Shown: piece after piece, positions 15,743 to 30,636 of the stretch
Layout of the letters: each line of letters starts with the position of its first letter
Numbering within the stretch: position 1 is the stretch's first letter
Assembly (NCBI GenBank): GCA_000025185.1
Contig: CP001848.1
Span: 810,001-842,000 of the forward strand
Length of the DNA: 32,000 bases
Origin: Pirellula staleyi DSM 6068
GTDB taxonomy: Bacteria; Planctomycetota; Planctomycetia; Pirellulales; Pirellulaceae
Direction: 5' to 3'
Position numbers and translations under genes: made by a program
The notes under the pieces: generated by a model
Seen by the model: the letters and a program-made list of their open reading frames with translations, nothing else
Told to the model about the DNA's origin: nothing
The model's database searches: none

Positions 15743-15778
15743 CGCGATCGAACATTGCGCGGCGGCTGCGGCCAAGCA

Positions 15779-16006: not shown

Positions 16007-16059
16007 CAGTTCTCCCTCGTCATCGCTCTGGAGGAGTATTTCGCGCGGTCAAATTATTA

Positions 16060-16209
16060 GTAGGTCAGATGCCCGCAGGGAATCTGACGGGAGAGGTGCC
16101 GGCAAGCAGTGTTCAGTGTCAGGTACGGAGTACCTGACCTACTACTCCGCCTCGAATTCAATGTCATGTGTTTTGGGTGGCTACTAGCTGGCTTGTCCAG
16201 CAGTGAGAG
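16060..16209. repeat. cluster of three REP-like hairpin units
   Basis: GTAGGTCAGATGCCCGCAGGGAATCTGAC (16060-16088). GTCAGGTACGGAGTACCTGACCTAC (16118-16142). CTAGCTGGCTTGTCCAGCAGTG (16184-16205). Confidence 0.8.
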
Positions 16210-16264
16210 TCGCAGCGGAAGTTGGCATGAACCAATAGACGAAGTACAACACATCGACGCTGAT

Positions 16265-16633
16265 CTACGCTTGTCGCAAGATTTTCTCCATCGCTTTTCC
16301 TTGGGCGAGCTCGTCGATCAGTTTGTCGAGATAGCGGACTTCGCGCATCAGCGGATCTTCGATGGCTTCGATACGGACGCCGCAAATCGTCCCTTTGATC
16401 AGCGCGCGATTGGGATGGAGCGCGGGAGCCTTGGCAAAGAAGGTTTCGAAATTGACTTCCTGCGCGATCTGCTTGGCGAGCCCCGCCGCGTCGTAGCCGG
16501 TGAGCCAGCTGATGATTTGATCGACTTCGGCCTGGGTCCGCTGCTTCTTCTCTGCTTTCTGCACGTAGAGCGGATAGACCTTCGAGAATTTCATCGCGCC
16601 AATCGATTGCCTGGCCATCGTCATCGTTCCCAT
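16265..16633 (-). CDS. DUF2200 family protein
   Basis: [32 protein letters not shown]...[29 protein letters not shown] matches my memory of the DUF2200 consensus. The true start may be an internal Met. Confidence 0.8.
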
Positions 16634-16713
16634 GGATATGCTTCGAGGAAAGTCGCGCTTGCACCACCGTTTGGCGACTTGCTGTCCGTCGATGCCGAGT
16701 GGTTCTGGCGCGG

Positions 16714-17115
16714 CTAGCGCGACGCATCCAGCATCGGTCGAAAGCCGGCGGCAATCAGCCGCTTGCCATCGAAGACGGGAGGCTGATCGGTGAACTGCAT
16801 CCGTGGATCGCTCGTCACCCGCTCCATCCCCGCGTCGCGCGCCTGCTTATCAGGCCACTCGATGAACGACATCACCACTGTCTCTTCACCACTTGCGCCC
16901 GCAGCTTTCATGAAGCTCCCATGTTCGACGATTTCCCGCGCGGTATCCACCCCATGATAGGTCGCTGCATCTGGTCCCGCTTCATCGAGCCAGCACTCCA
17001 CCACCCGAATCGCCCCACACTCCAGCACTACTTGCTCCGAGATCCGCGCCAGCTCCTCATAAGCAGCCCGATTATCTCTCGGTACCGGTGCCAAAAAACA
17101 ATCAAAATAGGTCAT
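16714..17115 (-). CDS. DUF1428 family protein
   Basis: [23 protein letters not shown]...[29 protein letters not shown]...[11 protein letters not shown] is typical of DUF1428. Confidence 0.8.
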
Positions 17116-17216
17116 AGGATTTATACCAATACTAAACTCAGCGATATAAAACGAATCGCGAAACAGCCTACCAGAGACTCGTGCGATTGGATCAACAGTC
17201 TTGTGCCATCGCGTAA

Positions 17217-18548
17217 CTACGGGCGAGGAGAAGCGTCTACTTGGCTCGCTGTCATGTTGGCCTTCGTGAATTTGGTTAATTCATCGACCGACCAGAATCC
17301 ATCTTTGTCGAGATCAGTGGTTGCGAATATCCCCTGTTTATCAGCTGGAAGCTCGCTTTGCTCAATCTTTTGATCGCCATTTTTGTCGAGCGCCTCCAGC
17401 GTCAAGCGAACGAGCTGCGCCACCTCATCCTTCCCGAGAATCGCTTCGATCACCTGCACCGCCTGGGCGAGATTCGTCCCTCGATAGCGAACCACATGCG
17501 CCTCATCGAGCACAAAATAGGTCGGCAGCGACAAGGCCATCCATCGCTTTTGAAGCTTGCCGTCGCCATCCACCATGGTCGGCCAGTCGATCGATTGATC
17601 GGCAATGAACATTTTTAATGCCTTCTGATCTTCGTCGGCGCTAACTCCCAGCAGCTGAAACTTGCTCTCCTTATACTTCGCTTGCAACTGCTTCAGCTGC
17701 GGCACTGAACTGACACAAGGGGCGCACCATGTGGCCCAAAAATCGACCAGGACAACCTTGCCACGATAGTGACTGAGATCAACTTCCTTGTCACTCAACA
17801 GTTTTCCCGCTAGTCCGGTCGCGGTCCCTCCCAAGCGCAAGTGCTGCATCGAAAAGATGGCGCCGTCGGCCAGATCGCGAATGGACGCTCCACCAACGAC
17901 TCGCTCCCCATGCCGAGCTGCCAGCTCCTTGAATGCCGCGATCACTTCCCCCATCCACTTCCGATCGTCGAGCTGACGCAGCTGCTCGACAAGCGATTTT
18001 CCGAGACGCTCTTCATACACCCCCAGCCCGCCGGTTGAAGCCTTCATTTGATCCGACAAAACCAGCAGTTCGCGATCATGGAGCGCTTTGCTCAGCTCGA
18101 GCAGCACGCGCAGCTCCTGGGGCTGTTTTGCTCGCAGCAATCGGTCATAGAGCGAAGGTGTCCACTGGCGTGGCTGTTGGTTAAAGAGCCACTCGATCGT
18201 TCGCTCCGAGGTGCCGTGGTGCTCGGCAAGATACTCCGATGCCCGCAGCGATACAGCCGACGAGCGGGGAGAAGCGAGAACCCACTGCAGCACCGCTTCA
18301 GCCTCCTGGCTCTCGAGATCCTGCTCGGCCAAGCGCATTGCCTGCTCCGCTAATCGCTCCCGGGCCGACCAGTAGTCCTCCTGACTCTTGATTTGACGTT
18401 CCGCCTCCGCCAAGCGCCGCGCAGCTCCCGCAAGGGAATCACCCACCTCTTCCCCCCGCAGAGAACAGGTCGCGAGCGCCACCACGAGCACCAGCATCAC
18501 GCTCGCGACTAGACGTTTCCAGCAGGGCATAAAGCGTCCCTCCAGCAT
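17217..18548 (-). CDS. TlpA/ResA-like thiol-disulfide oxidoreductase with N-terminal helical region and C-terminal EF-hand pair
   Basis: VVLVDFWATWCAPCVSSVPQL (CxxC thioredoxin fold). EF-hand loops DKNGDQKIEQSEL and DLDKDGFWSVDEL. The start is placed at ATG 18548 (or 18530, MPCWKRL...) because the longer ORF overlaps the upstream gene. Confidence 0.85.
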   Translation of the reverse strand: MLEGRFMPCWKRLVASVMLVLVVALATCSLRGEEVGDSLAGAARRLAEAERQIKSQEDYWSARERLAEQAMRLAEQDLESQEAEAVLQWVLASPRSSAVSLRASEYLAEHHGTSERTIEWLFNQQPRQWTPSLYDRLLRAKQPQELRVLLELSKALHDRELLVLSDQMKASTGGLGVYEERLGKSLVEQLRQLDDRKWMGEVIAAFKELAARHGERVVGGASIRDLADGAIFSMQHLRLGGTATGLAGKLLSDKEVDLSHYRGKVVLVDFWATWCAPCVSSVPQLKQLQAKYKESKFQLLGVSADEDQKALKMFIADQSIDWPTMVDGDGKLQKRWMALSLPTYFVLDEAHVVRYRGTNLAQAVQVIEAILGKDEVAQLVRLTLEALDKNGDQKIEQSELPADKQGIFATTDLDKDGFWSVDELTKFTKANMTASQVDASPRP

Positions 18549-18636
18549 GGCCAAATACCTACCAAGAGCAACCCTCAAGCTATTCGCCGCAGAGGTGCCA
18601 GCCTTGGGGATCGCACCCCAAATAAAGTGCCCCCCT

Positions 18637-19011
18637 CTAAAGATCACGGGCGAGAAAATGAAACTTATAATCCTTGAGATCAATGGAGTCGAGCTTGTCC
18701 TCCACCACGCGCAGCACTTCGATTTTATGTTCCATGGATGCTTGTTGCTCTGGCGCTGCAGAACTGAGTGTCGACTGATACTCTTCGATCACCGCCCTTA
18801 TAGTCGCAAGCCCTGCCGCAGCGCGAAACCAGCGGGGACGATCACCAGCGGCCACGGTGTAATCTTGCAGCGAGGGGCGATCATACGGGTCGGCATCGCA
18901 GACCATGATGAACGCAAATTCTTCCGCGTCGATCCCTGCATTGGGATCGAAATCGAGCACACCCGCCACGCGAATGAAAAGACGTTCGGCTCTAAAATTC
19001 GCCATCAGCAA
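18637..19011 (-). CDS. hypothetical cytoplasmic protein
   Basis: 124-aa ORF with protein-like composition. No family recognised. Confidence 0.5.
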   Translation of the reverse strand: MLMANFRAERLFIRVAGVLDFDPNAGIDAEEFAFIMVCDADPYDRPSLQDYTVAAGDRPRWFRAAAGLATIRAVIEEYQSTLSSAAPEQQASMEHKIEVLRVVEDKLDSIDLKDYKFHFLARDL

Positions 19012-19037
19012 TCATCGCTTCACAAAGAACAGGCATC

Positions 19038-19469
19038 TCACTCGGCGGGAATTTCAGCTGCAGGGCTCTCGAACTTGAGAAACACCCATTGCTCGAATTC
19101 ATCGCTACGACGCGCATCGGCTGGCACGGAGAAAACTGGCACCCTGCGTGCAGTGCGCCACTCGTGACGAGCTTCGTCACGACCGGACCAACTCACGGAA
19201 GCACGAATGATATTCATGAGCGTGGTCTCATGCGTGGTGTGACTATGGGCAGGAAAAGTAACTGACACGACAACGGCGTTCTGGGGATCTTTCTCTAGCG
19301 CAAATTGGGCCTCGAGATTCTGCCCTCGACGTTCACTGATCCTGGCGCTCACGAGTTTCACGCGGCGATGATCCGCTATATCGCCGGTCTTCACCGTCGG
19401 AGTCGCGGGAGCCGCAGAGACAAGGCCAATCGCAACTGCGATAAACAGAAGTGTCACAATGGTTCGCAT
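19038..19469 (-). CDS. secreted hypothetical protein
   Basis: Signal-peptide-like MRTIVTLLFIAVAIGLVSAAPA. No family recognised. Confidence 0.6.
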   Translation of the reverse strand: MRTIVTLLFIAVAIGLVSAAPATPTVKTGDIADHRRVKLVSARISERRGQNLEAQFALEKDPQNAVVVSVTFPAHSHTTHETTLMNIIRASVSWSGRDEARHEWRTARRVPVFSVPADARRSDEFEQWVFLKFESPAAEIPAE

Positions 19470-19521
19470 GTATCACCCCGCTGGCTGAACAAAACCGCAA
19501 TGCTGCCACATCCGAATTACT

Positions 19522-19543
19522 GGCAGGCAGGAGCCTGCCCTAC
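19522..19543 (-). repeat. GTAGG-headed REP-like unit (inverted copy of 12808-12829)
   Basis: The minus strand reads GTAGGGCAGGCTCCTGCCTGCC. Confidence 0.75.
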
Positions 19544-19711
19544 GGGACTTGAATCAATGCTGTCGATTGCCGTTGGCGGTATGATTGGGGCACATCAGCT
19601 TCCATGGGCTAACGCTTGAGTTCACCCGCCACCTGATTGACTTTCCATCACGCTAGGCCTTGCGGCGGTCGGGTGCAACGACTTATTCGGCGTTTTTTGA
19701 GAAGTTGCATC

Positions 19712-20209
19712 TTATGCTGTTCTTAGACGATGTTTTGGGCAATACGGATGCAGGGATTCCCCTTTTGCATCGAAAAAGCCTGCCTGATAGACGTGAATCA
19801 GGCCCTCGGTTAACTGAGCAAGCTGTCCACAAATCTGTTCACAAATACGGGCAAGTCTCGCTTGGCCCAATGAGCCCATGATCGGCGTGATCGTAATCGA
19901 TTGACACGTTTGGCGTAAATGCTCGATGACACTCTCGCCATTTGGTCCATTCCACGATCGCAGCTCTGCATCCCAACCTGCTCGATCCCAGTTGTAAAAC
20001 TCGTCGCCGGATACAAGTCGACCGACAAGAATCGCCGGGGCCGATTCATGCAAAAAACGCAAACCGCCATCTTGCCATCCACCGCGCTGCAGCAGTTGGC
20101 CGTCGTACGTTAACCCGGACACGCGAGGCCGGACACAATTCAGAAGTGCAGTTGGAGACGGAATTACGTCCAGTTTGCCGTGCACTACGTACCAATGCCG
20201 AATTTTCAC
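19712..20209 (-). CDS. hypothetical protein (island ORF 1)
   Basis: 165-aa ORF. No family recognised. Confidence 0.55.
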   Translation of the reverse strand: MKIRHWYVVHGKLDVIPSPTALLNCVRPRVSGLTYDGQLLQRGGWQDGGLRFLHESAPAILVGRLVSGDEFYNWDRAGWDAELRSWNGPNGESVIEHLRQTCQSITITPIMGSLGQARLARICEQICGQLAQLTEGLIHVYQAGFFDAKGESLHPYCPKHRLRTA

Positions 20210-20325
20210 ACCGACATCCTCCGTCTATTTGCCGAACGTAATGCCGATCAGTGGCCGAGCCGGCACGCGCCAACTCTCGAACCACAAGAAGCTTACCCGC
20301 CGGCTCGGTCCACTGCATCGGCGGG

Positions 20326-20700
20326 TTATGTTGTGCCGCCAGTGGGCCGCTCTTCAAAAAGCTTTGCCATGCGGTCCCAATACTCACTGCCTTCACCGCC
20401 GCACCTGCAATGGAAATTCGGGTCTTCAGTGAAGCCGTGCGGACCCCAACCTTCGCCTACAAAAGTCGGACACGCGAAGTGCTCAAAGACTGTTTCGAGG
20501 TGATGGCGCGACTTCGCGTTGGCGCAAAGTCCCCAGTCAGAGTTGAACGGTGCGAAGAACGAGCATCCGCCGCATTGCTTCTCGCCGTTCTCGCAAGCGA
20601 TCCGAAGCGCGGGTTCGTCAAGCCACTTTGACGCGTAGAGGTTCCGGCTCGCGTCGTTCGACCAAGTGTTGGTGATGATGATGTTGACGTTCATTGGCAC
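20326..20700 (-). CDS. Cys/His-rich hypothetical protein (island ORF 2)
   Basis: 124 aa. CGGCSFF...C...HH...H..C and HCRCGG suggest metal binding. No family recognised. Confidence 0.6.
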   Translation of the reverse strand: MPMNVNIIITNTWSNDASRNLYASKWLDEPALRIACENGEKQCGGCSFFAPFNSDWGLCANAKSRHHLETVFEHFACPTFVGEGWGPHGFTEDPNFHCRCGGEGSEYWDRMAKLFEERPTGGTT

Positions 20701-20741
20701 AACACAACAAAAGATAGACAGAATTCTGCATATTCAGTCGC

Positions 20742-20911
20742 ATTATTGATTCTGCATATTTCTGGCAGTCAATGTCAACAAAATACCTGGAGGGGATATT
20801 TATTGAGGAGGAGGCGGGAGCGGAGAGGCGCATGAAAAAGCCGTGCGGGACGTTTGGGGGTGTCGCGCACGGCGGGGCTTGGTTGTGTCTGGTATGGGGC
20901 AGCTGACCTAC
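20742..20911 (-). repeat. junction module copy A
   Basis: Minus strand reads GTAGGTCAGCTGCCCC..., then the terminator hairpin-TTTTTCATGCGCC, then GTATTTTGTTGACA (box at 20773-20786), then CAGAATCAATAAT. Homologous to 22248-22388, 25646-25775, 26288-26453 and 27661-27799. Confidence 0.85.
20835..20873 (-). terminator. rho-independent terminator downstream of the lipoprotein gene
   Basis: Minus strand: GCCGTGCGCGAC-loop-GTCCCGCACGGC (12-bp stem, one mismatch) followed by TTTTT. Confidence 0.75.
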
Positions 20912-20997
20912 ATCATGGGAGGCGGGCGGGAGCCTGCGTTATGGAACTCGATTGGCATCCGCAGCGGCTGATGACTCCAATGCTTGGCAGGTTCGGC

Positions 20998-21342
20998 CTA
21001 TCGCTTGGTCCCGTTCACAAAAGTCTCTCCGGATGACTTAACGACGATTCTGTCGCCGGGCTTTAACTCCCCACCATCGGCGCCGTCGATTGTCAGTTTC
21101 CCATTTTCGATCCGGAGGTGATGAGTTTTACCCCAGCTGAAGTCGTAGAACTCTTCTGTCACCACCTTACCTTCGCCGCGGGAATTGGAGTGCAGCGACG
21201 CGCCGCCCTGCGTGTTTTCAATCTCCACGAAATATCGACCACCGTCCAAATCGTACTTCGCGTAACTCGGCAGCGAAGTGGATGGACCACAACCCGTCGC
21301 CAAGAGGCACAAAAACAGACTTACCGATTTCACACGACCCAT
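20998..21342 (-). CDS. small lipoprotein (island ORF 3)
   Basis: MGRVKSVSLFLCLLATGCG lipobox. The start is placed at the internal ATG 21342 rather than 21372. Confidence 0.65.
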   Translation of the reverse strand: MGRVKSVSLFLCLLATGCGPSTSLPSYAKYDLDGGRYFVEIENTQGGASLHSNSRGEGKVVTEEFYDFSWGKTHHLRIENGKLTIDGADGGELKPGDRIVVKSSGETFVNGTKR

Positions 21343-21453
21343 CACGCAATCCTTATTGAGGCCCAAAGTCAACCATCACCCGGCACGCGCGAGCAAGGCC
21401 ACCCTGTGAAACATGCCCGATCACTTGCTCGGGCGTAGGGCTTGGTTATTCAG

Positions 21454-22164
21454 TCAGTTCGAATTGTGCAGGTCTTTGAACCAGAACGAGATTGCCCTTT
21501 CATTCAGCCCGCAATCGGGCTTGTAGTGACGGAGTGGATGCGACGAATCCTTGGCGTAGAAATGCGATGGCATCACGGACTCACGAATATCGTAGGTGAC
21601 CCAACCATCAAAATAGGACGCTGCGTCCAGCTGAAAGATTCCGGCAATCGCCAGTGCTCCTAGGAAATCCTCGCGTTCAAACTTATTGCTTGGGAACAGT
21701 CCTTGAATAAGCTTTTGCAACTCACCTAGTTTGGCTCCATTGCGGTTTTGGAGTCGATTCAGCGTTTCAGTAAGCATACCGAAATCTTCATCCTTGGGGA
21801 CTGGTTTTTCAGTACTAGCAAACTGCTGGAGCGTGGTTAGGGATGTTTCCAGATAGTATGCACGTCCAAGATTGCCAACCAGGAGCCTCCCGCTGACCTT
21901 GGTCTTTGACGGTGATGGTAGACCGCAAATGAAGCAACTAGCGTCCGGACCAGCCTGAAACACCTGCGTAGGTGCGTACTCATGACGCGGCAGCTGACGG
22001 CAGACCGCGTATGCCGGAAGCACGCCGCGCCAATCAAGCCTCCGGCTCGAAAGGCTGGCAATAAATGCACGCGCGACGTCTATGCGATCCAATGCTTCAG
22101 CGGCATCAACACACGCGTCAACCAATTCATTATGCGTCATTGATCGAGCACTGGAGTCGTTCAC
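21454..22164 (-). CDS. hypothetical protein (island ORF 4)
   Basis: 236-aa ORF. No family recognised. Confidence 0.6.
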   Translation of the reverse strand: MNDSSARSMTHNELVDACVDAAEALDRIDVARAFIASLSSRRLDWRGVLPAYAVCRQLPRHEYAPTQVFQAGPDASCFICGLPSPSKTKVSGRLLVGNLGRAYYLETSLTTLQQFASTEKPVPKDEDFGMLTETLNRLQNRNGAKLGELQKLIQGLFPSNKFEREDFLGALAIAGIFQLDAASYFDGWVTYDIRESVMPSHFYAKDSSHPLRHYKPDCGLNERAISFWFKDLHNSN

Positions 22165-22247
22165 GCTATAAACTCAGCCTGGATAACCAATCGTAGACGA
22201 AAACCTGCCTGATCCACGCCCATAAGTATTTGGCAGATCACCGAGGA

Positions 22248-22388
22248 TGTCAATTGATTCTGTTCTTGGCGCAGGTTGATGGAGCCAAGGAGCGGATTTG
22301 CTCGGCACATGAAAAAGCCGTGCGGGACAATAGGAGGCGTCGCACACGGCGGGGATGGTTGTTGGTAGGTTCGGGGCAGCTGACCTAC
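22248..22388 (-). repeat. junction module copy B (promoter-distal part rearranged)
   Basis: TGTCAATTGATTCTG...GGCACATGAAAAAGCCGTGCGGGAC...GTCGCACACGGCGGGGATGGTTGTTGGTAGGTTCGGGGCAGCTGACCTAC. Confidence 0.85.
22312..22350 (-). terminator. rho-independent terminator (module B)
   Basis: Same hairpin as module A, with one C-to-T change that gives a G-U pair. Followed by TTTTT on the minus strand. Confidence 0.7.
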
Positions 22389-22551
22389 TCAACTGACCGC
22401 TGATGCGACGCTCCTCGCTGGCAAATCGCCGCGCAGCTCCCTCCAGCGAAGCATCCAACCCCTGCCCCCACAACGGACAACTCACCAGCACCGCCCAAAC
22501 CACCAGGACAACGGTCGCAACCCACTTCTCCCAGAATGACATTAGCGACAA
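22389..22551 (-). pseudogene. 5' fragment of a paralog of the TlpA-like gene, truncated at the repeat boundary
   Basis: Translation WEKWVATVVLVVWAVLVSCPLWGQGLDASLEGAARRFASEERRISGQ aligns with WKRLVASVMLVLVVALATCSLRGEEVGDSLAGAARRLAEAERQIKSQ of 17217-18548. The two share the DNA string CGCCGCGCAGCTCCC. Similarity stops exactly at the GTAGGTCAG repeat end (22388). Confidence 0.55.
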
Positions 22552-22586
22552 TGCCTCCTAAAGGCCAAGCGACACAGCAAGTTGAA

Positions 22587-23303
22587 CTAACTCCGATCGA
22601 TCGCACTCCAACAACGACTGTTCAAGTTCGATTCAAAATAGGAGTCGATCACTTCCAACAGCGAACCTATCTCACAGAACGCTCCGTCTTCATGGCAAAA
22701 CGAAAACACCTTACTTCCTTCGGCCTTTCGGCGACGACCTTCAGCAAGCAGGTAGTCACCTGTATCCGTTCGGTAAAATGCCAGAGCATCTGCTAATTCA
22801 AGCGGCGATTCATCGTCTACCAAATCGAACGACCCAGCGTTGAAGTCCAAATCCCGCGATCGTACAAACTGGGAGGTGAGCAACGCATCATGGCTCTCTA
22901 GAATCCCATCCGTCGCGCGATAGACTTCGCTCAGGGGATAGGGGAGCAAATCAGCCCCGCCACCTGTTGGCAATCGAAAATTTCGCTGCCGCTTCACCTT
23001 GCCAGCGACGCCGCAAATCGTCACCTCTGCTTGTACTCGGCCAGCGAACTCTGCTCGATGCACGGTCAGTCCAAATCTGCCATCGTCGCACATCGCCCTG
23101 AGCCAACGTTGAAGTGAGTCTAGCTTGACGCTATCCGCAAGCTTGGCGATATAACTGGCCGGATCGGTGAGACATTCCCTATATCGCTCATCAACCAAAC
23201 TCTGAAACGGCTCTGGAATCGCAGCCACATCAATACCAGGAGGCACGAAAAGAGATTCGTCGCCATTAGCGTTGCGGAAAGTCTTGCAGCTGGGTTGGTT
23301 CAT
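22587..23303 (-). CDS. hypothetical protein with SUKH/SMI1-KNR4-like C-terminal half (island ORF 5)
   Basis: LPYPLSEVYRATDGI ... FYRTDTGDYLLAE ... KVFSFCHEDGAF ... LLEVIDSYF resembles SUKH motifs. Unverified without a profile search. Confidence 0.6.
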   Translation of the reverse strand: MNQPSCKTFRNANGDESLFVPPGIDVAAIPEPFQSLVDERYRECLTDPASYIAKLADSVKLDSLQRWLRAMCDDGRFGLTVHRAEFAGRVQAEVTICGVAGKVKRQRNFRLPTGGGADLLPYPLSEVYRATDGILESHDALLTSQFVRSRDLDFNAGSFDLVDDESPLELADALAFYRTDTGDYLLAEGRRRKAEGSKVFSFCHEDGAFCEIGSLLEVIDSYFESNLNSRCWSAIDRS

Positions 23304-23408
23304 TTCAGATACCAGATCACATTATTCGACCGATCTCTACATCTACCACTTCACCAATCGTTCTATATCCCCAACCCAGCGATATCAACAACTGGCAATC
23401 AACGACAG

Positions 23409-23807
23409 CTACCTTGAGTCGAATATCCACTGGCGGCAAGCTGCGACGCAGGCAGGACAGACGATCGTCCAAAACCCCTGGCCAAAAGGAAATTGTTCCT
23501 CGCGAACTGGACCGAAAGATAGAAAGCCGTTACCGGGAATCGCCTGACCATCTTCCAGCGGCAAATGGTGGACATCGCACCAAAGAAGTGCGTCCTGGAT
23601 TGGGCCTAAGTCTTGAGGCACTCCCGCGTACTGTTGGCTGAATTGATCCCAAAGCTGCTTCTGCCAGAAGCGGAGATCCGCGCGACGTTGCCGGTACGAA
23701 AGGGATGACTCTGACTGTTTATCAGCGCGCAACTGCAATGCAAAACGCCGGGCCTTGGTTGGTCCAGCATAGTCCCTAAACAAAGTGCGAAGTTCTTCTG
23801 CGGTCAT
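23409..23807 (-). CDS. hypothetical protein (island ORF 6)
   Basis: 132-aa ORF. No family recognised. Confidence 0.55.
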   Translation of the reverse strand: MTAEELRTLFRDYAGPTKARRFALQLRADKQSESSLSYRQRRADLRFWQKQLWDQFSQQYAGVPQDLGPIQDALLWCDVHHLPLEDGQAIPGNGFLSFGPVREEQFPFGQGFWTIVCPACVAACRQWIFDSR

Positions 23808-23904
23808 ATTGGGTAGGTGAAGTTGGCATTACCGAGTGAAACGCGTCAACCCGGCCATTTCCGGGTCGCGTTCAACCGTAAGTTATCGGGTGTTGTTTCG
23901 CAGC

Positions 23905-24633
23905 CTACGCAGTGGCAGTGGCAACTTCGCCGGAGTCGCAGTCGAGCACGATGACTCCTTCCTCCTTATCGTCAAGCTGTGCCACCATATTCCCAGCCCG
24001 ATCCCAAACGGCCGAACCCCCTGCGCATTCCGCCCCATCGAGCAGACCAAGGCAATTCGAGAGGAGTGTCGGCATACTCAATTCAGTGGCGATTTGCGAA
24101 AGCCTGTGGCTGGCTTGCTTCACGCCTTCAGCCGTTTTCGCTGCACTGGCCACATAAACTGTGGCACCTGCTTGATGCGCCCCAGTCGCATGCTGTGGCA
24201 CCGACAGTTCAAAACAAATTGCCAGTTCTACCGGTGGCTCGTCCAGCAGGAGACTCGGCGAACCTCTTCCAGGCTGAAAGAAAGGAACCTCGTCGGGATG
24301 GAGATAGCTCTTGGAATACACGAGAGGCGGGAGGACTGGGCGAAATAGAAAGGTTGAGATACAAGGGAGGTCTCCGGTGTCGAGCGGAGCCCCGACGCCA
24401 AGAGAGATACCGCTTGCATTGCAGATCGCCTGCAGAGGCTGCAAGCGCGTGTCGCTCGGCAAACACGCGAATTCGCCAGCCAGTTTGGGTTCATACCCGG
24501 TGAGCGACAGCTCGGGAAAGATGACGAGCTGAGCACCCAGACTTGCGGCAGCTGCTGTCAAAGCAAGATGTCGATCGATATTGCGCCCCACCGCCCCGAC
24601 AACAGGCCTCAATTGCACAACGGCCAGCTTCAC
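23905..24633 (-). CDS. carbon-nitrogen hydrolase (nitrilase superfamily) (island ORF 7)
   Basis: MKLAVVQLRPVVG...; candidate E-K-C triad contexts LVIFPELSLTGY, YSKSYLHPDE, LAICFELS. Confidence 0.85.
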   Translation of the reverse strand: MKLAVVQLRPVVGAVGRNIDRHLALTAAAASLGAQLVIFPELSLTGYEPKLAGEFACLPSDTRLQPLQAICNASGISLGVGAPLDTGDLPCISTFLFRPVLPPLVYSKSYLHPDEVPFFQPGRGSPSLLLDEPPVELAICFELSVPQHATGAHQAGATVYVASAAKTAEGVKQASHRLSQIATELSMPTLLSNCLGLLDGAECAGGSAVWDRAGNMVAQLDDKEEGVIVLDCDSGEVATATA

Positions 24634-24681
24634 AGTTCACCTAATTCCTGGCGGCAGAACGGATCGACGTTCAGCGATTGG

Positions 24682-25089
24682 TTATACGACTGGCCGCGCC
24701 CCCGTGAAAAGCCCCTTCAGCTTCTCAAGCTGTTGCACAAGACCAGTGACAGGCAGATCGCCCCCGAAGCAGGCAAGCGACGATTGGAGGTTGGTTGCAA
24801 GGTAGTTCAGTGGCACAGCATCGCCAAACGATTCGATTCGCACACGAGCACCTTCCAGCAGTTTCAGAAACGCACTCTCACGGGCCTGATCGCCGTCGAA
24901 GTACGCATCAAAATCCTTACCGATATAGACACCTGGTCCGACCCAGTCCCATCCGCAAGCGAATGCTGCAAGCTCGGAATTGTCGCAGGCCTCAGCCTCT
25001 GAAAGCAAGAAGTGACGGATTACCCACAAATCCATGTCGTGGATTATCGCATGACGGTCGCGGTACTTAATGATTTCGTGGCCCACCAC
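24682..25089 (-). CDS. hypothetical protein (island ORF 8)
   Basis: 135-aa ORF. No family recognised. Confidence 0.55.
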   Translation of the reverse strand: MVGHEIIKYRDRHAIIHDMDLWVIRHFLLSEAEACDNSELAAFACGWDWVGPGVYIGKDFDAYFDGDQARESAFLKLLEGARVRIESFGDAVPLNYLATNLQSSLACFGGDLPVTGLVQQLEKLKGLFTGARPVV

Positions 25090-25181
25090 CCCTCCAGCCT
25101 AATAACGAAACAACTTCACCCGCGAAGCCGATCACTTTGCAAACACCCAACATCACTGCCATGGTCTCATGCAACGACTTA

Positions 25182-25604
25182 CTAGATGGCTCGATTGCGA
25201 GTTTCGTCTCGATGGAGGTTTGCCAAACGAACGATACTGGATATTACGCCTTCGTAGTTCGCTCGACTGAACGCAAACTCTGCTGAAGGCGCGATGCTGG
25301 AGCGACTATCCGAAAAGTCCTTGAAAGATACGTGATCGGCAGCATAAATCACGCGACATTTTGCGTGGCCACATCCATATTCTCCACACTTACATACCGC
25401 GATCAACCGTATGTCGGCTTCGACTGGAATCTCGCCAGGATAGGGTGGAATAGTCGGCAGATCGGCATCGATGTATCGCTGAGGAATAAATGTCCCTGGC
25501 GCGACGACGAGTTCTCCAAGAGGTCGCTCGTCAACCTGAAGTTCAAATGCCACATCACCACAATCATCCACGACTCGAAAGCTAAGTCGATTCAATATTG
25601 TCAC
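25182..25604 (-). CDS. hypothetical protein with CKCGEYGCGH motif (island ORF 9)
   Basis: The listed ORF 25182-25967 runs through junction module E. It is trimmed here to GTG 25604 (VTILNRLSF...). The start is uncertain. Confidence 0.45.
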   Translation of the reverse strand: MTILNRLSFRVVDDCGDVAFELQVDERPLGELVVAPGTFIPQRYIDADLPTIPPYPGEIPVEADIRLIAVCKCGEYGCGHAKCRVIYAADHVSFKDFSDSRSSIAPSAEFAFSRANYEGVISSIVRLANLHRDETRNRAI

Positions 25605-25645
25605 CCAACAAATAATTGGCAGAGTTCTATAGATCCCACTGCAAT

Positions 25646-25775
25646 ATTGATTCTGCAGATTGCAGAGGGCTGTCAACAAAATACCTTCTTGGGCAGCTTT
25701 GTTTCCCAAAAATACAGGATTGCACAGCACATGAAAGATCCGTGCGCGACGAATGCGTATTGTGAAGCGCGGCAG
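25646..25775 (-). repeat. junction module copy E (degenerate hairpin)
   Basis: ATTGATTCTGCAG...TGTCAACAAAATAC (25671-25684)...GATTGCACAGCACATGAAAGATCCGTGCGCGAC aligns with module C. The terminator stem is partly eroded. Confidence 0.75.
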
Positions 25776-25827
25776 GAATTGGCTCTTGTCGGTAAGGGGG
25801 GACTTACATCCAGAGCTTGGGCGTGTG

Positions 25828-26229
25828 TCAATCGTCCGTAATGATCGTTCCCTTCTCCCAGAACTCCTCGAGCTTCCGCCAGTACCGCAACGAGACGGGG
25901 CGTAGAAATTCAAGGAACTGGTCTGGCTTGGTTTGGGAATGCAGGGATGTGTTCTGAAGACTTTCAAGGATTCCTGTCGTTGCCGCTTCGCGAACGTACT
26001 TATCGCCCTCGATATGCAAGCGTTCGATCATTTCAAATGCTGCTTGGAGCCGTAGTCGGTCCGCCGTTTCAAGTAGTGAAATCACATATTGAGCGAAACC
26101 ACCGAGTGCAAGGTAGTAGGGTATTTCCGATTCGTCTTTCCACTCGGCGACGAATGCGTCATAGTCCGCCGCAAATGCCGGGCACGATGAAACAATGGCC
26201 TGCATCATCTCTGCTCGGTCGATCATCAC
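25828..26229 (-). CDS. all-helical hypothetical protein, immunity-protein-like (island ORF 10)
   Basis: 133 aa. ...EIPYYLALGGFAQYVISLL...IEGDKYVREAATTGILESLQN resembles small helical-repeat proteins seen in immunity gene arrays. This is from memory and is not verified. Confidence 0.6.
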   Translation of the reverse strand: MMIDRAEMMQAIVSSCPAFAADYDAFVAEWKDESEIPYYLALGGFAQYVISLLETADRLRLQAAFEMIERLHIEGDKYVREAATTGILESLQNTSLHSQTKPDQFLEFLRPVSLRYWRKLEEFWEKGTIITDD

Positions 26230-26287
26230 GCTTCCGCCGCCCTACACCAAACAACAACTAGAAACACAAGCCTACCCATTCCACCGC

Positions 26288-26453
26288 ATTGATTATTCTG
26301 CCGCTCGTGATGGTGTGTCAACAAAATACGCTTTTGGGACACTTTGCTCCGTGAAAAGCAAGATTGCATCGGCGCATGAAAAAGCCGTGCGGGACGATTG
26401 GGTCGTCGCGAACAGCGGGGATGGTTGTTGGTAGGTTCGGGCTAGTGACCTAC
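26288..26453 (-). repeat. junction module copy C
   Basis: ATTGATTATTCTG...TGTCAACAAAATAC...GGCGCATGAAAAAGCCGTGCGGGACGATTGGGTCGTCGCGAACAGCGGGGATGGTTGTTGGTAGGTTCGGGCTAGTGACCTAC. Confidence 0.85.
26379..26415 (-). terminator. rho-independent terminator (module C, stem weakened by two substitutions)
   Basis: Hairpin plus TTTTT on the minus strand, 112 nt past the stop of 26527-27651. Confidence 0.6.
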
Positions 26454-26526
26454 AAGGTTGGGGAGAGCTGATATTAAACGCAGCAATTCACAGCGAGAAC
26501 ACGTCGTGCATCGCTCAGTCAAGTCC

Positions 26527-27651
26527 CTACTTGGCGACTGGAACGAAAGATCGATACACCGCAATCGGGTGGACTGTCACATTCGGATATCGTGAGTAAC
26601 GCATGAATGCTTCAAGATTGTCCATCGCTGAGAAGATCGCCCTGAACCCACGCTCAAACGCCACCTGCTCAGCCGATTCATCTGCTGACTCTTGAAACTC
26701 TGCCATTGGATCAAAAGCGGTTTCTGTCGACAAATCTGGAATCGACGTTAACAGTCCAAAGACTGTTAACGGTACATTCGGACGATTGCCGTATCCATAG
26801 AGTAGATGCTCTGGATCCTGATCTACAAAGCAGTCTCGCTTGAGATTACACAACACTTGAAAAGATGGGCAGGAAGGGAATGGATACACGCGGAAGTTGA
26901 TTCTGGAGGCCATAAAGGTGTTAATCCAGAGCTTGATACCGTTGAGGAGCCACTTTTCCACACCAAGGATTTGAGGGGCCGTAAGCGATTGGAGCGTCGC
27001 CTCCATAGATTTTAGTTGCTGGGTTTTCACTGACCTCTTGTTACGGTCACGTTCTCCATTTGCTTGCAATCGCATTGTTTCAATATTGTTCTGAAGCTCC
27101 TTATACTCAGGCGATTGCTTAACCGACTGCATGCTGCATTCAGAAATAAAATTGACTATTTCATTGAACTTCTCGCTGATCCCCAGGATTCGAGGATAGT
27201 CCTCGATAACGCTAGCCCCCGAAGCCTTTACGTATGGGTGAAAACAGATTGCTTCGCGAATTGCTGCTGGATTGGATTCTTGGTGATCCAAAGTCGTCAT
27301 GAGATCCACTACTAAACCAGCATCAGTTAGTGCGTTGTCAACTGAATTCAGAACGTCATGGTGAAGAATTTTTGATTCCAAGACGGATCTTTTTCCCGTG
27401 TAGTCAACTCCAAGATTTGCCTCCGCCACTTTAGGGATTCCAAACGACACAGCTGCCTTTTGGCCGCGGCCCACGTCATCAGAAATGGAAACTTTCTCGC
27501 GCAACCCTCCCTCGAACTGACTCCAAATAGATGCTGCTTTTTCAAAGTCTAAATAGAGCAGATCGCGTATGTCTTGGTGCAGCATTTGATTGCATATAAC
27601 GAATAGAAGGGAGAATTTAGCGGATCCAAGCCCGGGAATTATTCTATACAT
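26527..27651 (-). CDS. 374-aa hypothetical protein, AT-rich (island ORF 11)
   Basis: Long uninterrupted ORF with protein-like composition. No motif recognised. An alternative start is MLHQDIRD... 23 codons downstream. Confidence 0.7.
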   Translation of the reverse strand: MYRIIPGLGSAKFSLLFVICNQMLHQDIRDLLYLDFEKAASIWSQFEGGLREKVSISDDVGRGQKAAVSFGIPKVAEANLGVDYTGKRSVLESKILHHDVLNSVDNALTDAGLVVDLMTTLDHQESNPAAIREAICFHPYVKASGASVIEDYPRILGISEKFNEIVNFISECSMQSVKQSPEYKELQNNIETMRLQANGERDRNKRSVKTQQLKSMEATLQSLTAPQILGVEKWLLNGIKLWINTFMASRINFRVYPFPSCPSFQVLCNLKRDCFVDQDPEHLLYGYGNRPNVPLTVFGLLTSIPDLSTETAFDPMAEFQESADESAEQVAFERGFRAIFSAMDNLEAFMRYSRYPNVTVHPIAVYRSFVPVAK

Positions 27652-27660
27652 CCTGGGGGG

Positions 27661-27799
27661 GTCAACGAAATACTACTGAGGAGAGTTTTTTGTTTAGGAA
27701 AGACGCAATTTGCTCGGCGCATGAAAAAGCCGTGCGGGACGATTGGGTCGTCGCGCACGGCGGGGATGGTTGTTGGTAGGTTCGGGCTAGATAACCTAC
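27661..27799 (-). repeat. junction module copy D
   Basis: GTCAACGAAATAC...GGCGCATGAAAAAGCCGTGCGGGACGATTGGGTCGTCGCGCACGGCGGGGATGGTTGTTGGTAGGTTCGGGCTAGATAACCTAC. Confidence 0.85.
27724..27761 (-). terminator. rho-independent terminator downstream of ppdK (module D)
   Basis: GCCGTGCGCGAC-loop-GTCCCGCACGGC followed by TTTTT on the minus strand. Confidence 0.75.
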
Positions 27800-27824
27800 T
27801 TTATGGGTAGCAGGCGGCAGGGGA

Positions 27825-27924
27825 CACTGCTGGACAAGCCAGCAGTGCCACCCACAATTCGTCAGTGCATCCAAAAGTTGGTGTTTGTCGTTGATTGTTG
27901 TCAGGTACGGGGTACCTGACCTAC
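27825..27924. repeat. composite hairpin repeats (hairpin H + GTCAGGTAC family)
   Basis: CACTGCTGGACAAGCCAGCAGTGCCACCCA (27825-27853). GTCAGGTACGGGGTACCTGACCTAC (27900-27924). Confidence 0.8.
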
Positions 27925-27954: not shown

Positions 27955-30636
27955 CTACTTTTTGCTGTTCTTGAGAGCAGCTTGGGCGGCGGCGAGGCGG
28001 GCGATTGGCACGCGGAATGGCGAGCAGCTGACGTAGTCGAGTCCTGCGCGGTGGCAGAATTCGATCGAAGCTGGATCACCACCATGTTCGCCGCAAATGC
28101 CGATCTTGAGGTCCTTCTTCGTGCTGCGACCCTTCTTCACGCCGATTTCGACCAGCTGACCGACACCCGATTGATCGAGCGTTTGGAACGGGTCGGCGAG
28201 GAACAGATCTTTCTTCATGTAGTCGGGCAAGAAGCTGTTGATGTCGTCGCGGCTGATGCCGAACGTCATCTGCGTCAAGTCGTTCGTACCGAAGCTGAAG
28301 AAGTCGGCGTACTCGGCCACCTTGTCGGCGGTGAGAGCAGCACGGGGGATTTCGATCATCGTGCCGACGAGCACGTCGAGCGTACCCTTGAACTTGTGTT
28401 CGGCCTTCACGGTTTCGATCGTCTCTTCGGTCAGCTTGCGGAGCATGGCGAGCTCGGCAGCGGTGCCGACGAGTGGGATCATGATCTCGGGACGAGCGTC
28501 GATCTTCTTCCCCTTGCAAACGATCGCCGCTTCGATGATCGCCCGGACCTGCATCTCGAGGATTTCAGGATAGGTGACGCTCAAACGGCAACCACGGTGA
28601 CCGAGCATCGGGTTGGATTCGTGCAGCTGAGCTACGCGAGCCTTGATGACGGCGGGCTTCACGCCCATTTGCTTGGCGAGTTCTTCTTGGGTCTTCGCGT
28701 CGTGTGGCACGAATTCGTGAAGTGGTGGATCGAGAAGGCGAATGGTGACAGGCAAGCCCTTCATGGCGGTGAAGATGCCGGTGAAGTCTTCGCGCTGAAT
28801 CGGCAGCAGCTTGGCGAGGGCCGCCTTGCGTGCGTCGAGTTCGGTGGCGAGGATCATTTCGCGCATCGCAGCGATGCGGTCTTCACCGAAGAACATATGT
28901 TCGGTGCGGCAGAGGCCAATGCCCTCAGCGCCGAATTCGCGAGCACGGCTCGAGTCTTCAGGGCTGTCGGCGTTGGTGCGAATGTTGAGGGTGCGGTATT
29001 TGTCCGACCACTTCATCACGGTGGCAAAATCGCCGCCGAGTTTGGGCTCTTGCGTCGCCATGGCGCCGGCAAACACTTCGCCCGTGGTGCCGTTGATGGT
29101 GATCACATCGCCAGCGCCGTAGGTCTTGCCTTTGATCATCATCTTCTTGGCTTTTTCGTCGATCGTCATTTCGCCTGCGCCGACGACGCAGCAACGACCC
29201 CAACCGCGAGCCACCACAGCAGCGTGGCTGGTCATACCACCGGTGCTGGTGAGAATACCAGCGGCCGAGTGCATACCGGCGACGTCTTCGGGGCTGGTTT
29301 CTTTACGGCAGAGAATCACCTTCTCGCCCGAGGCAGCACGTTCGACAGCTTCTTCAGCGGTGAAGGCGAGCTTGCCCACAGCGGCACCTGGCGAAGCAGG
29401 GAGACCGATGGTGAGAACCTTGCCACCTTCGCGAGCCGTTTCAAGGGCCTTGGTGTCGAGGCTGGGGAGCAGGAGCTGCGACAAGTCGCCAGCGGGGATG
29501 CGCATCACACCTTGTTCTTCGGTGATGAGCTTCTCTTTGACCATGTCGACGGCCATCTTCACAGCGGCGGTGCCGGTGCGCTTGCCGTTGCGGGTTTGCA
29601 GCATGAAGAGAACACCCTTTTCGATGGTGAACTCGATGTCCTGCATGTCTTTGTAGTGCTCTTCGAGGATCTTTTTGATCTCGAGCAGCTGCTTGTGGAT
29701 CGCCTTGTTCCACTTGGGCATTTCGGCCACAGGCTGAGGCGTACGAATACCAGCAACCACGTCTTCGCCTTGGGCGTTGATGAGGAATTCGCCGAAGAAT
29801 TCATTCTTGCCTGTGTTCGGGTCGCGGGTGAAAGCGACACCGGTGCCGCTGTCGTCGCCCATGTTGCCATAGACCATCGACTGTACGTTCACAGCGGTGC
29901 CGAGCAGGCCGCGAATGTTTTCGACTTCGCGATACTTCACTGCCTTATCGCCCATCCAGCTCTTGAACACAGCACCGATGGCTGCTTCGAGCTGTGCATA
30001 GGGATCTTGAGGGAAGTCGTTGCCGGTGTACTTGCGATAGACTTCTTTGTAGGCCTTGCAGAGTTCGATGAGGCCTTCGGCTGGCACATCGGTATCGAGC
30101 TTCGCTTTGTACTTCTTCTTGATGCCGTCAAAGATGTGTTCGTAGTGCTCGTGATCGACACCCATCACAACGTCGCCGAACATGTTGATGAGGCGGCGGT
30201 AGGCATCGTAGGCAAAGCGTTCGTTGCCGGTGGCGTTGGCCAGACCAGCGGTCGAAACGTCGTTGAGACCGAGGTTCAGAATGGTGTTCATCATGCCCGG
30301 CATCGAGAGCTTAGCGCCCGAGCGAACACTGACGAGCAACGGATTCTTGTCGTCGCCGAACTTCTTGCCGAGCTCTTTTTCGAGCGAGCCGACATGCTTG
30401 CGAACTTCGTCCATCAAACCATCGGGCATCTTGCGTCCGCTCTTGTAGTAGAGGTCGCAAACTTCGGTGGTGATGGTGAAGCCGGGAGGAACAGGCAGAC
30501 CGATCGACGTCATGTCGGCGAGGTTGGCACCTTTGCCGCCGAGGAGGTCTTTGCTCAGTCCTTTGCCTTCGGACTTGCTCTTGCTGAAGTAGTAACACAT
30601 CTTGCCGCTTTTGGCGGCAGGCTTCACTTTGGCCAT
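27955..30636 (-). CDS. ppdK: pyruvate, phosphate dikinase
   Basis: LLGGKGANLADM, phospho-His motif GGMTSHAAVVARG, C-terminal GICGEHGGDP. Length ~890 aa. The start may be Met13 (MCYYFSK...). Confidence 0.95.
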   Translation of the reverse strand: MAKVKPAAKSGKMCYYFSKSKSEGKGLSKDLLGGKGANLADMTSIGLPVPPGFTITTEVCDLYYKSGRKMPDGLMDEVRKHVGSLEKELGKKFGDDKNPLLVSVRSGAKLSMPGMMNTILNLGLNDVSTAGLANATGNERFAYDAYRRLINMFGDVVMGVDHEHYEHIFDGIKKKYKAKLDTDVPAEGLIELCKAYKEVYRKYTGNDFPQDPYAQLEAAIGAVFKSWMGDKAVKYREVENIRGLLGTAVNVQSMVYGNMGDDSGTGVAFTRDPNTGKNEFFGEFLINAQGEDVVAGIRTPQPVAEMPKWNKAIHKQLLEIKKILEEHYKDMQDIEFTIEKGVLFMLQTRNGKRTGTAAVKMAVDMVKEKLITEEQGVMRIPAGDLSQLLLPSLDTKALETAREGGKVLTIGLPASPGAAVGKLAFTAEEAVERAASGEKVILCRKETSPEDVAGMHSAAGILTSTGGMTSHAAVVARGWGRCCVVGAGEMTIDEKAKKMMIKGKTYGAGDVITINGTTGEVFAGAMATQEPKLGGDFATVMKWSDKYRTLNIRTNADSPEDSSRAREFGAEGIGLCRTEHMFFGEDRIAAMREMILATELDARKAALAKLLPIQREDFTGIFTAMKGLPVTIRLLDPPLHEFVPHDAKTQEELAKQMGVKPAVIKARVAQLHESNPMLGHRGCRLSVTYPEILEMQVRAIIEAAIVCKGKKIDARPEIMIPLVGTAAELAMLRKLTEETIETVKAEHKFKGTLDVLVGTMIEIPRAALTADKVAEYADFFSFGTNDLTQMTFGISRDDINSFLPDYMKKDLFLADPFQTLDQSGVGQLVEIGVKKGRSTKKDLKIGICGEHGGDPASIEFCHRAGLDYVSCSPFRVPIARLAAAQAALKNSKK

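Follow-up and report, generated by a model that had tools for sequence, protein, structure and literature searches.

A probable integron-type cassette array with repeated promoter-like junction modules beside ppdK in Pirellula staleyi DSM 6068

Introduction

The ppdK locus of Pirellula staleyi DSM 6068 raises the question of how a bacterium comes to assemble a run of small, mutually unrelated genes that all face the same way. Between ppdK and the gene for a 143-amino-acid (aa) protein, in a window of 32,000 nucleotides from contig CP001848.1 (positions 810,001 to 842,000; coordinates below are those of the window unless another allele is named), lie 11 minus-strand open reading frames (ORFs) at 19712-27651, an island that together with both flanks corresponds to Psta_0672-0684. 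An initial annotation described it as an orphan cassette or immunity-type array cut into five blocks by a repeated junction module, with an assembly mechanism that is not standard. As a whole that observation was partly confirmed, and its interpretation is partly supported. The 11 ORFs stand where they had been placed, an all-versus-all BLASTP comparison gave no paralogy among them at E<=1e-3, and the island is indeed richer in AT, with a GC content of 0.528 as against 0.583 in the remaining window; GC at third codon positions is 0.45-0.68 in the cassettes and 0.65-0.75 in core genes. What does not stand is the non-standard assembly, as the island contains canonical integron attC sites and the G|TT cassette signature.

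The island is best read, with a probability of roughly three in four, as a chromosomal integron-type cassette array that has no integrase at the locus, that is, a cluster of attC sites lacking integrase (CALIN). The part that is non-standard is a repeated terminator-promoter module, as predicted from its sequence, which ends at the capture point, together with the exchange of blocks at the core of this module.

Integrons have, to our knowledge, been studied almost entirely in Proteobacteria. There, expression drops with distance from the single cassette promoter (Pc), and in large arrays the majority of cassettes are believed to stay silent until shuffling brings them forward. A planctomycete array with repeated transcription re-start modules that end at insertion points would be a testable natural counter-example, in a locus that is small and tractable (8.4 kb, in a cultivable type strain). 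The locus also bears on the turnover of integrase-less arrays, on how homologous recombination at internal repeats may complement attC recombination, and on the roles of the planctomycete cassette pool (DUF7674, DUF6414 and near-orphans). In the literature searched there is no description of the locus or of such modules, nor of integrons in P. staleyi.

attC sites and the cassette signature

Homologues of the DUF7674 protein encoded in the island were traced to other planctomycetes, namely Rhodopirellula sp. P2 and several metagenome contigs. There they belong to arrays of ~500-bp units parted by ~90-nucleotide (nt) imperfect palindromes with the integron signature, each R' box being the reverse complement of the next R'' (GTTCCTC/GAGGAAC, GTTCGCC/GGCGAAC, GTTATTT/AAATAAC). 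The DUF7674 ORF of the window (25828-26229), without its flanks, has ~80% identity to cassettes in canonical integron arrays. A covariance model (CM) of attC, R1, was trained on 14 sites from planctomycetes of other genera. Of the 20 stem pairs in this reference set 13 covary, and the left arm has unpaired columns. The planctomycete attC model finds arrays in several unrelated contigs and could be reused.

Run on the window with filters off, R1 gave three significant matches. All of them fall within the island on the strand of the genes, right after stop codons, and there is none elsewhere in the 32 kb; the runner-up over the 64 kb searched has an E-value of about 1. The first (site 1, 21361-21451; 32.5 bits, E 1.2e-7, full length) lies directly 3' of the stop of a 236-aa ORF (21454-22164), the next along the array (site 3, 20231-20331; 22.3 bits, E 1.7e-4) overlaps the stop of a 124-aa Cys/His-rich ORF (20326-20700), and the last of the array (site 2, 19607-19691; 27.9 bits, E 3.3e-6), with R' = GTTAGCC, closes the 165-aa ORF at 19712-20209. 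All align over the full length of the model (positions 1-91) and have the attC architecture of an imperfect palindrome with R''/R' boxes and extrahelical bases. They form a same-strand cluster of at least two sites less than 4 kb apart, as judged by R1 and not by IntegronFinder's own model. These three sites had been overlooked in the initial annotation. When the plain consensus RYYYAAC..GTTRRRY was scanned for, each strand yielded a single pair, which is the chance level, and the modules yielded none.

Three further alleles, all from metagenome assemblies, are available for comparison: L001 (GCA_002483025.1) and two Logan contigs of a sister lineage, L087 and L088. They contain four attC sites, at L001 15775-15864 (61 bits), L001 14643-14733 (the orthologue of site 1), L087 4421-4511 and L088 5051-5138. 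Across window and alleles, the 5' end of a cassette with an attC site, starting from G|TT, is reverse-complementary to the R'' box that this cassette carries. The match is exact in four cases, the L001 120-aa (GTTCTGT/ACAGAAC) and 131-aa (GTTGGGC/GCCCAAC) cassettes, the L088 GyrI-like cassette (GTTCGGA/TCCGAAC) and the 124-aa cassette of the window (GTTGTGC/GCACAAC; its 5' GTTGTGT/GTTGTGC fits its own R'' ACATAAC/GCACAAC). It holds at 6/7 positions in three more, the window 236-aa cassette (beginning G|TTATCC, R'' = GAATAAC), the window 165-aa cassette (beginning G|TTCGGC, R'' = GCCGAAT) and the L087 leucine-rich-repeat (LRR) cassette. With AAC/GTT taken as fixed, we infer that ~24 of 28 variable positions match, compared with ~7 by chance.

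No integrase or transposase domain, Phage_integrase included, was found by Pfam in any of 37 window ORFs (the 11 of the island and 26 flanking ORFs of at least 110 aa), in agreement with what had been noted before. Phage_integrase was likewise missing from the called genes of L001, L087 and L088, and no recombinase gene was found in the 32-kb window or in the 20 kb flanking the locus in the alleles. A CALIN is defined by at least two attC sites with no integrase within 4 kb (Cury et al. 2016, PMC4889954). Because the island has three such sites and no integrase within that distance, it is assigned to this class, and the attC sites with their G|TT signature argue that the array is therefore of integron type and its mechanism largely standard. 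It is not a complete integron, in which intI, attI and Pc adjoin the first cassette: here that cassette abuts ppdK, repetitive extragenic palindrome (REP) hairpins and the first module, and there is no intI. An island linked to a tRNA or a known RNA is ruled out by Rfam and tRNA scans of the window, both of which were empty.

Exchange between alleles

Comparing alleles was the check proposed in the initial annotation, to see if the blocks of the array change as whole units, and such unit-wise variation is what the comparison shows. PpdK of L001 is identical to that of the window, with an identity at four-fold sites of ~0.97, and ppdK of L087 and L088 has 93% nt identity to it. A further contig, L106, was rejected as an independent allele, being 100% identical to L001 and from the same sequencing run. 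The junction module is present in all four alleles, in 4-5 copies each and confined to this locus, and the genes between the copies differ.

Some of the differences are bounded by G|TT. The first two cassettes differ between L087 and L088: LRR189 with its attC in the former and GyrI148 with its attC in the latter have both borders at G|TT, and the next gene, of 127 aa, is common to both from G|TTTGGC on. In place of the 124-aa and 165-aa genes of DSM 6068, L001 carries genes of 120, 131 and 95 aa and a DMP19 gene; the position of the 124-aa cassette is taken by the unrelated 120-aa cassette, and similarity between the two alleles breaks exactly at 20702, the G|TT of module D. The 236-aa cassette is common to L001 (98% aa identity), as is a lipoprotein-like cassette of 114/124 aa with a signal peptide and Cys (20998-21372), which is 99% identical to L001 14752-15096.

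Larger units come and go as well. A 3.3-kb block around the nitrilase gene is absent in L001 and 96% identical in L087 and L088 (window 25724-23889 has 96% identity to positions 8911-10745 of these two). The DUF6414 unit occurs in DSM 6068 and is absent from L001, L087 and L088; the DUF7674 unit occurs in DSM 6068, L001 and L087 and is absent from L088; and a 95-aa cassette follows DUF7674 in L001 and precedes it in L087. Where alleles differ in having the DUF7674 or the DUF6414 unit, or where 5' halves have been re-associated, the breaks fall in the invariant core of the module or at most ~20 nt past it. Units keep their own 3' half-module; in three alleles DUF7674 is thus followed by the E-type half. 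The array shows two kinds of junction, one at G|TT that is typical of integrase chemistry, and one at the core that is compatible with homologous recombination or with a site-specific reaction.

Between DSM 6068 and the L087 lineage, identity at four-fold sites is 0.84-0.96 for cassettes, compared with 0.77 for ppdK, 0.61 for the DUF1428 gene and 0.48 for the AhpC-like gene. The cassettes are less diverged at synonymous positions than the core genes and have therefore moved between the lineages after these had split. Past the AhpC-like gene, at 15000-20729 of L087 and L088, there is a second stretch of small co-oriented genes that again differ (PadR, DinB, VF530 and others), in which no module, attC or other repeat was found.

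The junction module

The division of the island into five blocks is borne out by nhmmer and CM matches, which concur on five copies of a module of ~185 nt (~185-210), every one of them inside the island and oriented with the genes. A 21-mer from the module occurs in four exact copies and one degenerate copy, as against none expected, and again in the island only; the module as defined by its second hairpin (h2) and promoter-like box does not occur in the remaining 23 kb of the window, where REPs do. It is also absent from the DUF7674 loci of other taxa and from 80 ppdK loci. The 21-mer had no match in the genome-contig collection, which holds no related genome (its closest ppdK has only 69% identity), and a 19-mer gave four chance matches in metagenome contigs with no wider similarity.

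Read on the coding strand, the module begins with a REP-like hairpin (h1), GTAGGT..ACCTAC in copies A, B and C and diverged in D, followed by CAACAACCATCCCC and by hairpin h2, a GC-rich stem of 12 bp in which 8 bp and a further 3-5 bp lie on either side of a conserved C.C mismatch, and which runs into TTTTTCATGCGCC. Some 45-50 nt on there is a box, GGTATTTTGTTGACA, with a -10-like (A/C)AxAAT at a spacing of N16-18, and last comes a leader of ~45 nt that ends at GTT (27600, 26258, 25609, 22187 and 20708), 6-35 nt upstream of the next start codon. The hairpin has energies of -23 to -33 kcal/mol with z of -2.7 to -5.1 in four of the five copies, the fifth being degenerate, and four of the five promoter-like boxes score 10-11 of 12 in a sigma-70 consensus scan. 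Within the module a core of 26 nt, CGTCCCGCACGGCTTTTTCATGCGCC, is invariant.

The copies, all on the minus strand, are met in the order A, B, E, C and D. Module A (27598-27807, repeat span 27625-27807; nhmmer E 3e-41, 93 bits with the module CM, R3) has h1 at 27776-27799, the terminator-like h2 at 27729-27761 (fold -33.3 kcal/mol, z -5.1), a U-run with CATG at 27720-27728, a promoter-like TTGACC-16-AATAAT at 27665-27638 (10/12) and a leader end GTTATAT at 27600-27594. In module B (26252-26461, repeat 26278-26461; E 3e-49, 85 bits) h1 lies at 26431-26453, the 21-mer core at 26375-26395, TTGACA-18-AATAAT at 26321-26292 (11/12) and the leader end GTTGTTG at 26258-26252. Module E (25603-25817, repeat 25634-25817; E 8e-40, 29 bits) is the copy with the degenerate hairpin, which folds at shuffle level (z -0.9); its core at 25730-25750 has three mismatches, and it keeps the box GGTATTTTGTTGACA at 25686-25671 and a leader end GTTGGGT at 25609-25603. 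Module C (22181-22397, repeat 22212-22397; E 3e-42, 89 bits) comprises h1 at 22365-22388, the core at 22308-22328, TTGACA-17-AATACT at 22253-22225 (10/12) and GTTATCC at 22187-22181, and module D (20702-20919, repeat 20733-20919; E 3.5e-47, 86 bits) the core at 20831-20851, TTGACA-18-CAGAAT at 20778-20749 and GTTGTGT at 20708-20702.

Several other identities of the module were considered and rejected. To the eye the module resembles attC (AAC-CAT-spacer-stem...stem-T-rich-CAT), and reciprocal CM tests of this likeness were negative: the attC models R1 and R2 match no module at E<=5-10, and R3 matches no attC in six attC-rich loci, which argues against the hairpin as an attC derivative. The canonical attC consensus is likewise rejected for the modules, none of which holds an RYYYAAC..GTTRRRY pair. 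Nor does the promoter segment represent a cassette that lacks an ORF and brings an attC along, as its DNA folds at shuffle level (z -1.0 to +1.3). A dif/Xer-like site or an IS200-type end was considered by eye and dismissed for the core, which has no 11-6-11 palindrome; the positions of the breakpoints do not agree with such a site either.

How the core has been conserved bears on a different account of the array, according to which the core, and not attC, is the working recombination site: a site-specific recombinase of unknown identity would recognise 26 nt made up of the hairpin right arm, TTTTT and CATGCGCC and move promoter-plus-gene units, the attC sites being leftovers from ordinary integrons. 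Over 12 copies in three lineages the right arm and TTTTTCATGCGCC are near-invariant (10/12 for the arm, 8/12 for the tail), and the left arm occurs in six variants without compensatory changes, with the stem C.C mismatch kept, a pattern that would be odd for a mere terminator. The account also draws on the four independent block-level differences that all break within ~20 nt of the core, on the restriction of modules to this locus in four alleles, and on the 3' half-module that each unit carries with it, as with the E-type half after DUF7674. However, the core is the longest stretch of perfect identity, where a homologous crossover would be expected anyway; no recombinase gene lies in the 32 kb or the 20-kb allele flanks; the exchanges at the level of single cassettes fall at canonical G|TT and not at the core; and the first module after ppdK has the hairpin though no unit precedes it. 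This account is accordingly judged quite unlikely.

A proposed mechanism and its weak points

Under the integron reading, the ORFs would be mobile cassettes, each opening just past G|TT and closing with its own attC (R''..AAC, GTT..R'), and their excision and insertion at G|TT would be the work of an integron integrase whose gene lies elsewhere. The h2 hairpin and its UUUUU would halt transcription arriving from upstream, and the TTGACA-N16-18-(A/C)AxAAT box would launch a new transcript whose leader ends at the G|TT of the next cassette. With a predicted terminator and promoter in every module, each block would form its own transcription unit, and distal cassettes would be independent of one head promoter. 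The geometry would be that of promoter, capture site, newest cassette and then older gene. The modules in addition supply ~185 nt of homology, and whole blocks have been gained, lost or swapped with breakpoints that map to the 26-nt core CGTCCCGCACGGCTTTTTCATGCGCC, by what may be homologous recombination or a site-specific reaction.

It would be a larger step to regard the module as a new integron component, a multiplied terminator-promoter-capture platform with 4-5 independently transcribed capture points, or its core as the site of a second recombinase, and we hold this to be unlikely. If true, planctomycete integrons would have solved the problem of silent distal cassettes in a way not described for those of proteobacteria.

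A number of observations weigh against the integron reading of the island, or against parts of it. Classical integron cassettes seldom carry promoters (PMC4889954), and the array therefore departs from the textbook integron. The integrase would have to act in trans. In the five-ORF nitrilase block the attC CMs gave no match at E<1, about half of the cassettes have a 3' end made by a module only, and complementarity between the 5' end and R'' is absent where only a module follows (DUF6414 and the 95-aa, 127-aa, 369-aa and 348-aa genes). The attC model was seeded by sites picked by eye, and its E-values are rough. Promoter and terminator activity of the modules is suggested by consensus and folding only: promoter-like boxes over the region number five, with 5.4 expected from shuffles, and the terminator scan did not flag h2. 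Finally, repeat-induced misjoins are possible in the metagenome assemblies from which the comparison alleles were taken.

Relation to known systems

The array shares with CALINs and sedentary chromosomal integrons its co-oriented, mostly single-gene cassettes of unknown function, its G|TT boundaries with complementarity to the own R'', its GC content below that of the host and a content that differs between close relatives. It differs from them in its five internal terminator-plus-promoter modules, where classical arrays depend on one Pc and promoterless cassettes; in the several ORFs that end in a module rather than in a recognisable attC, the G|TT boundaries being confined to cassettes with attC; and in having a five-gene block without attC and block exchange at the module core.

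A comparison with the integron platform (intI-Pc-attI) is instructive in that the right half of the module amounts to a promoter-like box and a leader ending at G|TT, and, as with the first cassette after a Pc and attI, cassettes with canonical attC have been inserted at the leader G|TT (LRR189 versus GyrI148; the 124-aa versus the 120-aa cassette). Unlike the platform, the module has no adjacent intI and occurs in 4-5 copies in one array, no attI-type integrase-binding repeats were identified in it, and its leader is unstructured and without similarity to the attC right arm.

The recombinase-associated acquired interbacterial defence (rAID-1) clusters of Bacteroidales (Ross et al., bioRxiv 10.1101/471110) also have co-oriented small orphan genes, skewed GC, repetitive intergenic sequence, an integron-like look and strain-variable content. 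They are distinguished by an adjacent XerD-family recombinase, of which there is none in the window or the alleles, and by recognisable immunity families, neither of which is a feature of this island, and it in turn has attC. Mobile promoters and REPIN, Correia and ERIC elements (Nijveen et al. 2012, PMC3575422) resemble the module in being near-identical, promoter-bearing non-coding sequences before unrelated genes, and in their REP-type hairpins; those are dispersed over genomes, in contrast to the module, which is seen in one array only and in one orientation and ends at the integron crossover point.

REP hairpins and the island flanks

On the proximal side the array is bordered by the conserved ppdK gene (27955-30636, minus strand; Pfam PPDK_N, PEP-utilizers and PEP-utilizers_C), whose protein is identical to Psta_0684 / ADB15370, and on the distal side by the conserved gene of a 143-aa secreted hypothetical protein, Psta_0672 (19038-19469, minus strand), which has just two clusters among 5.8 billion proteins. 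The REP-like hairpins that had been said to bound the island are real, and belong to three families of GTAG-headed REP palindromes that are scattered across the window, mostly at gene ends. Those 3' of the ppdK stop (27825-27924, minus strand; fold z -3.1 and -3.8) comprise REPa at 27900-27924, GTAGGTCAGGTACCCCGTACCTGAC, with further copies at 10214-10238, 14147-14171 and 16118-16142, and REPb at 27825-27847, CACTGCTGG..CCAGCAGTG, with further copies at 8538-8560, 8647-8669 and 14213-14235. At the distal edge lies REPc (19522-19543, minus strand), GTAGGGCAGGC..GCCTGCC, with another copy at 12808-12829; sequence conservation resumes beyond it, at 19515. The module hairpin h1 is a variant of REPa. 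Dispersed GTAG-headed palindromes accompanied by a gene for a REP-associated tyrosine transposase (RAYT) are what is found for REPa, REPb, REPc and h1, and not for the whole module, which is confined to the array. A RAYT-like Y1_Tnp gene (177 aa, L001 20877-21410, corresponding to about 16105-16249 of the window) lies between the DUF2200 and metallophosphatase genes of L001 and is absent in DSM 6068.

The truncated gene noted at 22389-22551 (minus strand) is real as well, and is the N-terminus, 54 aa long, of an AhpC/thioredoxin-like gene. The cut lies just past GGTCAG, and through this 6-nt microhomology the fragment is joined to the left flank of module C. The nt identity of the fragment is 89% to the start of the intact L087 gene as against 76% to the resident gene at 17217-18530, and it is the true orthologue of the L087 AhpC-like gene. 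The resident gene has 73% aa identity to the sister lineage, compared with 82-86% for the fragment; because it is further from that lineage than the fragment is, DNA of a more distant lineage seems to have taken the place of the distal flank in DSM 6068.

These flanking features lend themselves to a plainer explanation, namely an ordinary flexible island in which accessory genes were gathered by homologous recombination after DNA uptake, the repeats being REPs or bacterial interspersed mosaic elements (BIMEs) spread by RAYT, with no integron involved. It would fit the dispersal of GTAG-headed REP families in the window, the relation of h1 to REPa, the Y1_Tnp insertion near the locus in L001, the variation of L087 and L088 distal to the AhpC-like gene, where there are neither modules nor attC, and the microhomology event at the AhpC fragment. 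Yet it leaves unexplained the attC sites with covarying stems after stop codons, the complementarity of R'' and 5' ends and the swaps that are bounded by G|TT on both sides, and the module is missing from the other 23 kb of the window, where REPs are present. This explanation is considered very improbable.

Cassette genes and their possible functions

Pfam matches were obtained for only 3 of the 11 island ORFs, and scans with NCBIfam and PADLOC added nothing to these. The cassette next to ppdK encodes a DUF6414 protein (26527-27585, 352 aa as annotated, the longest ORF reaching 27651; E 1e-12) and is followed by the DUF7674 cassette (E 2e-23). In the five-ORF block without recognisable attC between its ORFs (22587-25604) the order is a 140-aa ORF (25182-25604), a 135-aa ORF (24682-25089), the CN_hydrolase ORF (23905-24633; E 1e-23), for which the nitrilase-superfamily identity given at the outset is thus upheld, a 132-aa ORF (23409-23807) and a 238-aa ORF (22587-23303); all of these are on the minus strand, as are the remaining four cassettes. 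The 124-aa Cys-rich ORF has a DUF3027 match that is sub-threshold only. The label of orphan is a relative one: in a set of 1.84 billion proteins the family of the 238-aa ORF comprises 47 representative clusters, and DUF7674 counts 23.

A function in immunity had been suggested for the array, in part from a SUKH-like half of the 238-aa protein. That resemblance was not supported: Pfam gave no SUKH or SMI1_KNR4 match in the ORF or in 29 members of its family, and the AlphaFold model (pLDDT 92) had nothing better than E 0.3 in a Foldseek search of the PDB. One member of this small and otherwise unannotated family bears a RexA domain, known from the lambda Rex abortive-infection sensor. The DUF7674 model (AlphaFold, pLDDT 79.5) is all-helical and without a match in the PDB by Foldseek.

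The immunity-type reading has indirect points in its favour, the neighbours of DUF7674 elsewhere and the DMP19 and LRR cassettes in the alleles, and no window ORF that matches an immunity family. In its fullest form it holds that the locus serves above all to store orphan genes for immunity or defence, against toxins of competitors or against phages, much as the rAID-1 clusters do, with the repeats serving gene acquisition, and it is compatible with the integron mechanism. In two integron arrays from metagenomes, homologues of DUF7674 stand beside Imm63 and SMI1_KNR4/SUKH cassettes, the DolA protein of the Dodola anti-phage system belongs to DUF6414, and integron cassettes have been reported to encode phage defence (bioRxiv 10.1101/2024.07.02.601719). 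But DolA pairs with the ClpB-like DolB, and the DUF6414 gene has no such neighbour and no PADLOC match; none of the 11 ORFs matches an immunity family (SUKH or Imm*) in Pfam (E<=0.1) or a PADLOC model (E<=0.01); neither a toxin remnant nor a XerD-type recombinase occurs in the window; and one cassette is a plain CN-hydrolase. As a description of the whole array this remains doubtful. The cassette pool does overlap with defence- and immunity-type integron cassettes of other planctomycetes, and that some of its members act in defence or immunity is plausible and would agree with the reported phage-defence cassettes.

The two metagenome contigs just mentioned, L098 (1-8140) and L099 (1-5243), are integron arrays with attC matches of 32-44 bits. 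Their cassettes include Imm63, SMI1_KNR4/SUKH, DUF7660, DUF2716 and DUF7674, in an order that differs between the contigs; immunity genes of polymorphic-toxin systems are thus in circulation as cassettes of integrons. In Rhodopirellula sp. P2 (L089, CP118225.1) a canonical integron array headed by DUF7674 (9887-11523) is followed by three tandem pairs of an IS91-type Y2 transposase and a tyrosine recombinase gene (12359-19750), and an attC at 19934-20025 lies on the opposite strand, as if IS91-type elements had split or inverted the array.

Other features of the window

Outside the island, a 157-aa ORF at 10727-11200 (GC 0.45, no Pfam match) adjoins a REPa copy and a weak attC-like match (10214-10280, E 0.17-1.1), and a gene for a 397-aa leucine-rich-repeat protein at 12909-14102 has a GC content of 0.50; both low-GC genes are possibly isolated acquisitions. 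At the other end of the window, a STAND-NTPase/GNAT fusion (1116-2255), a sigma70_r4/HTH gene (2252-2902) and a weakly large-terminase-like ORF (2778-4274) make up a stretch, 1116-4274, that may be the remnant of a phage-like element.

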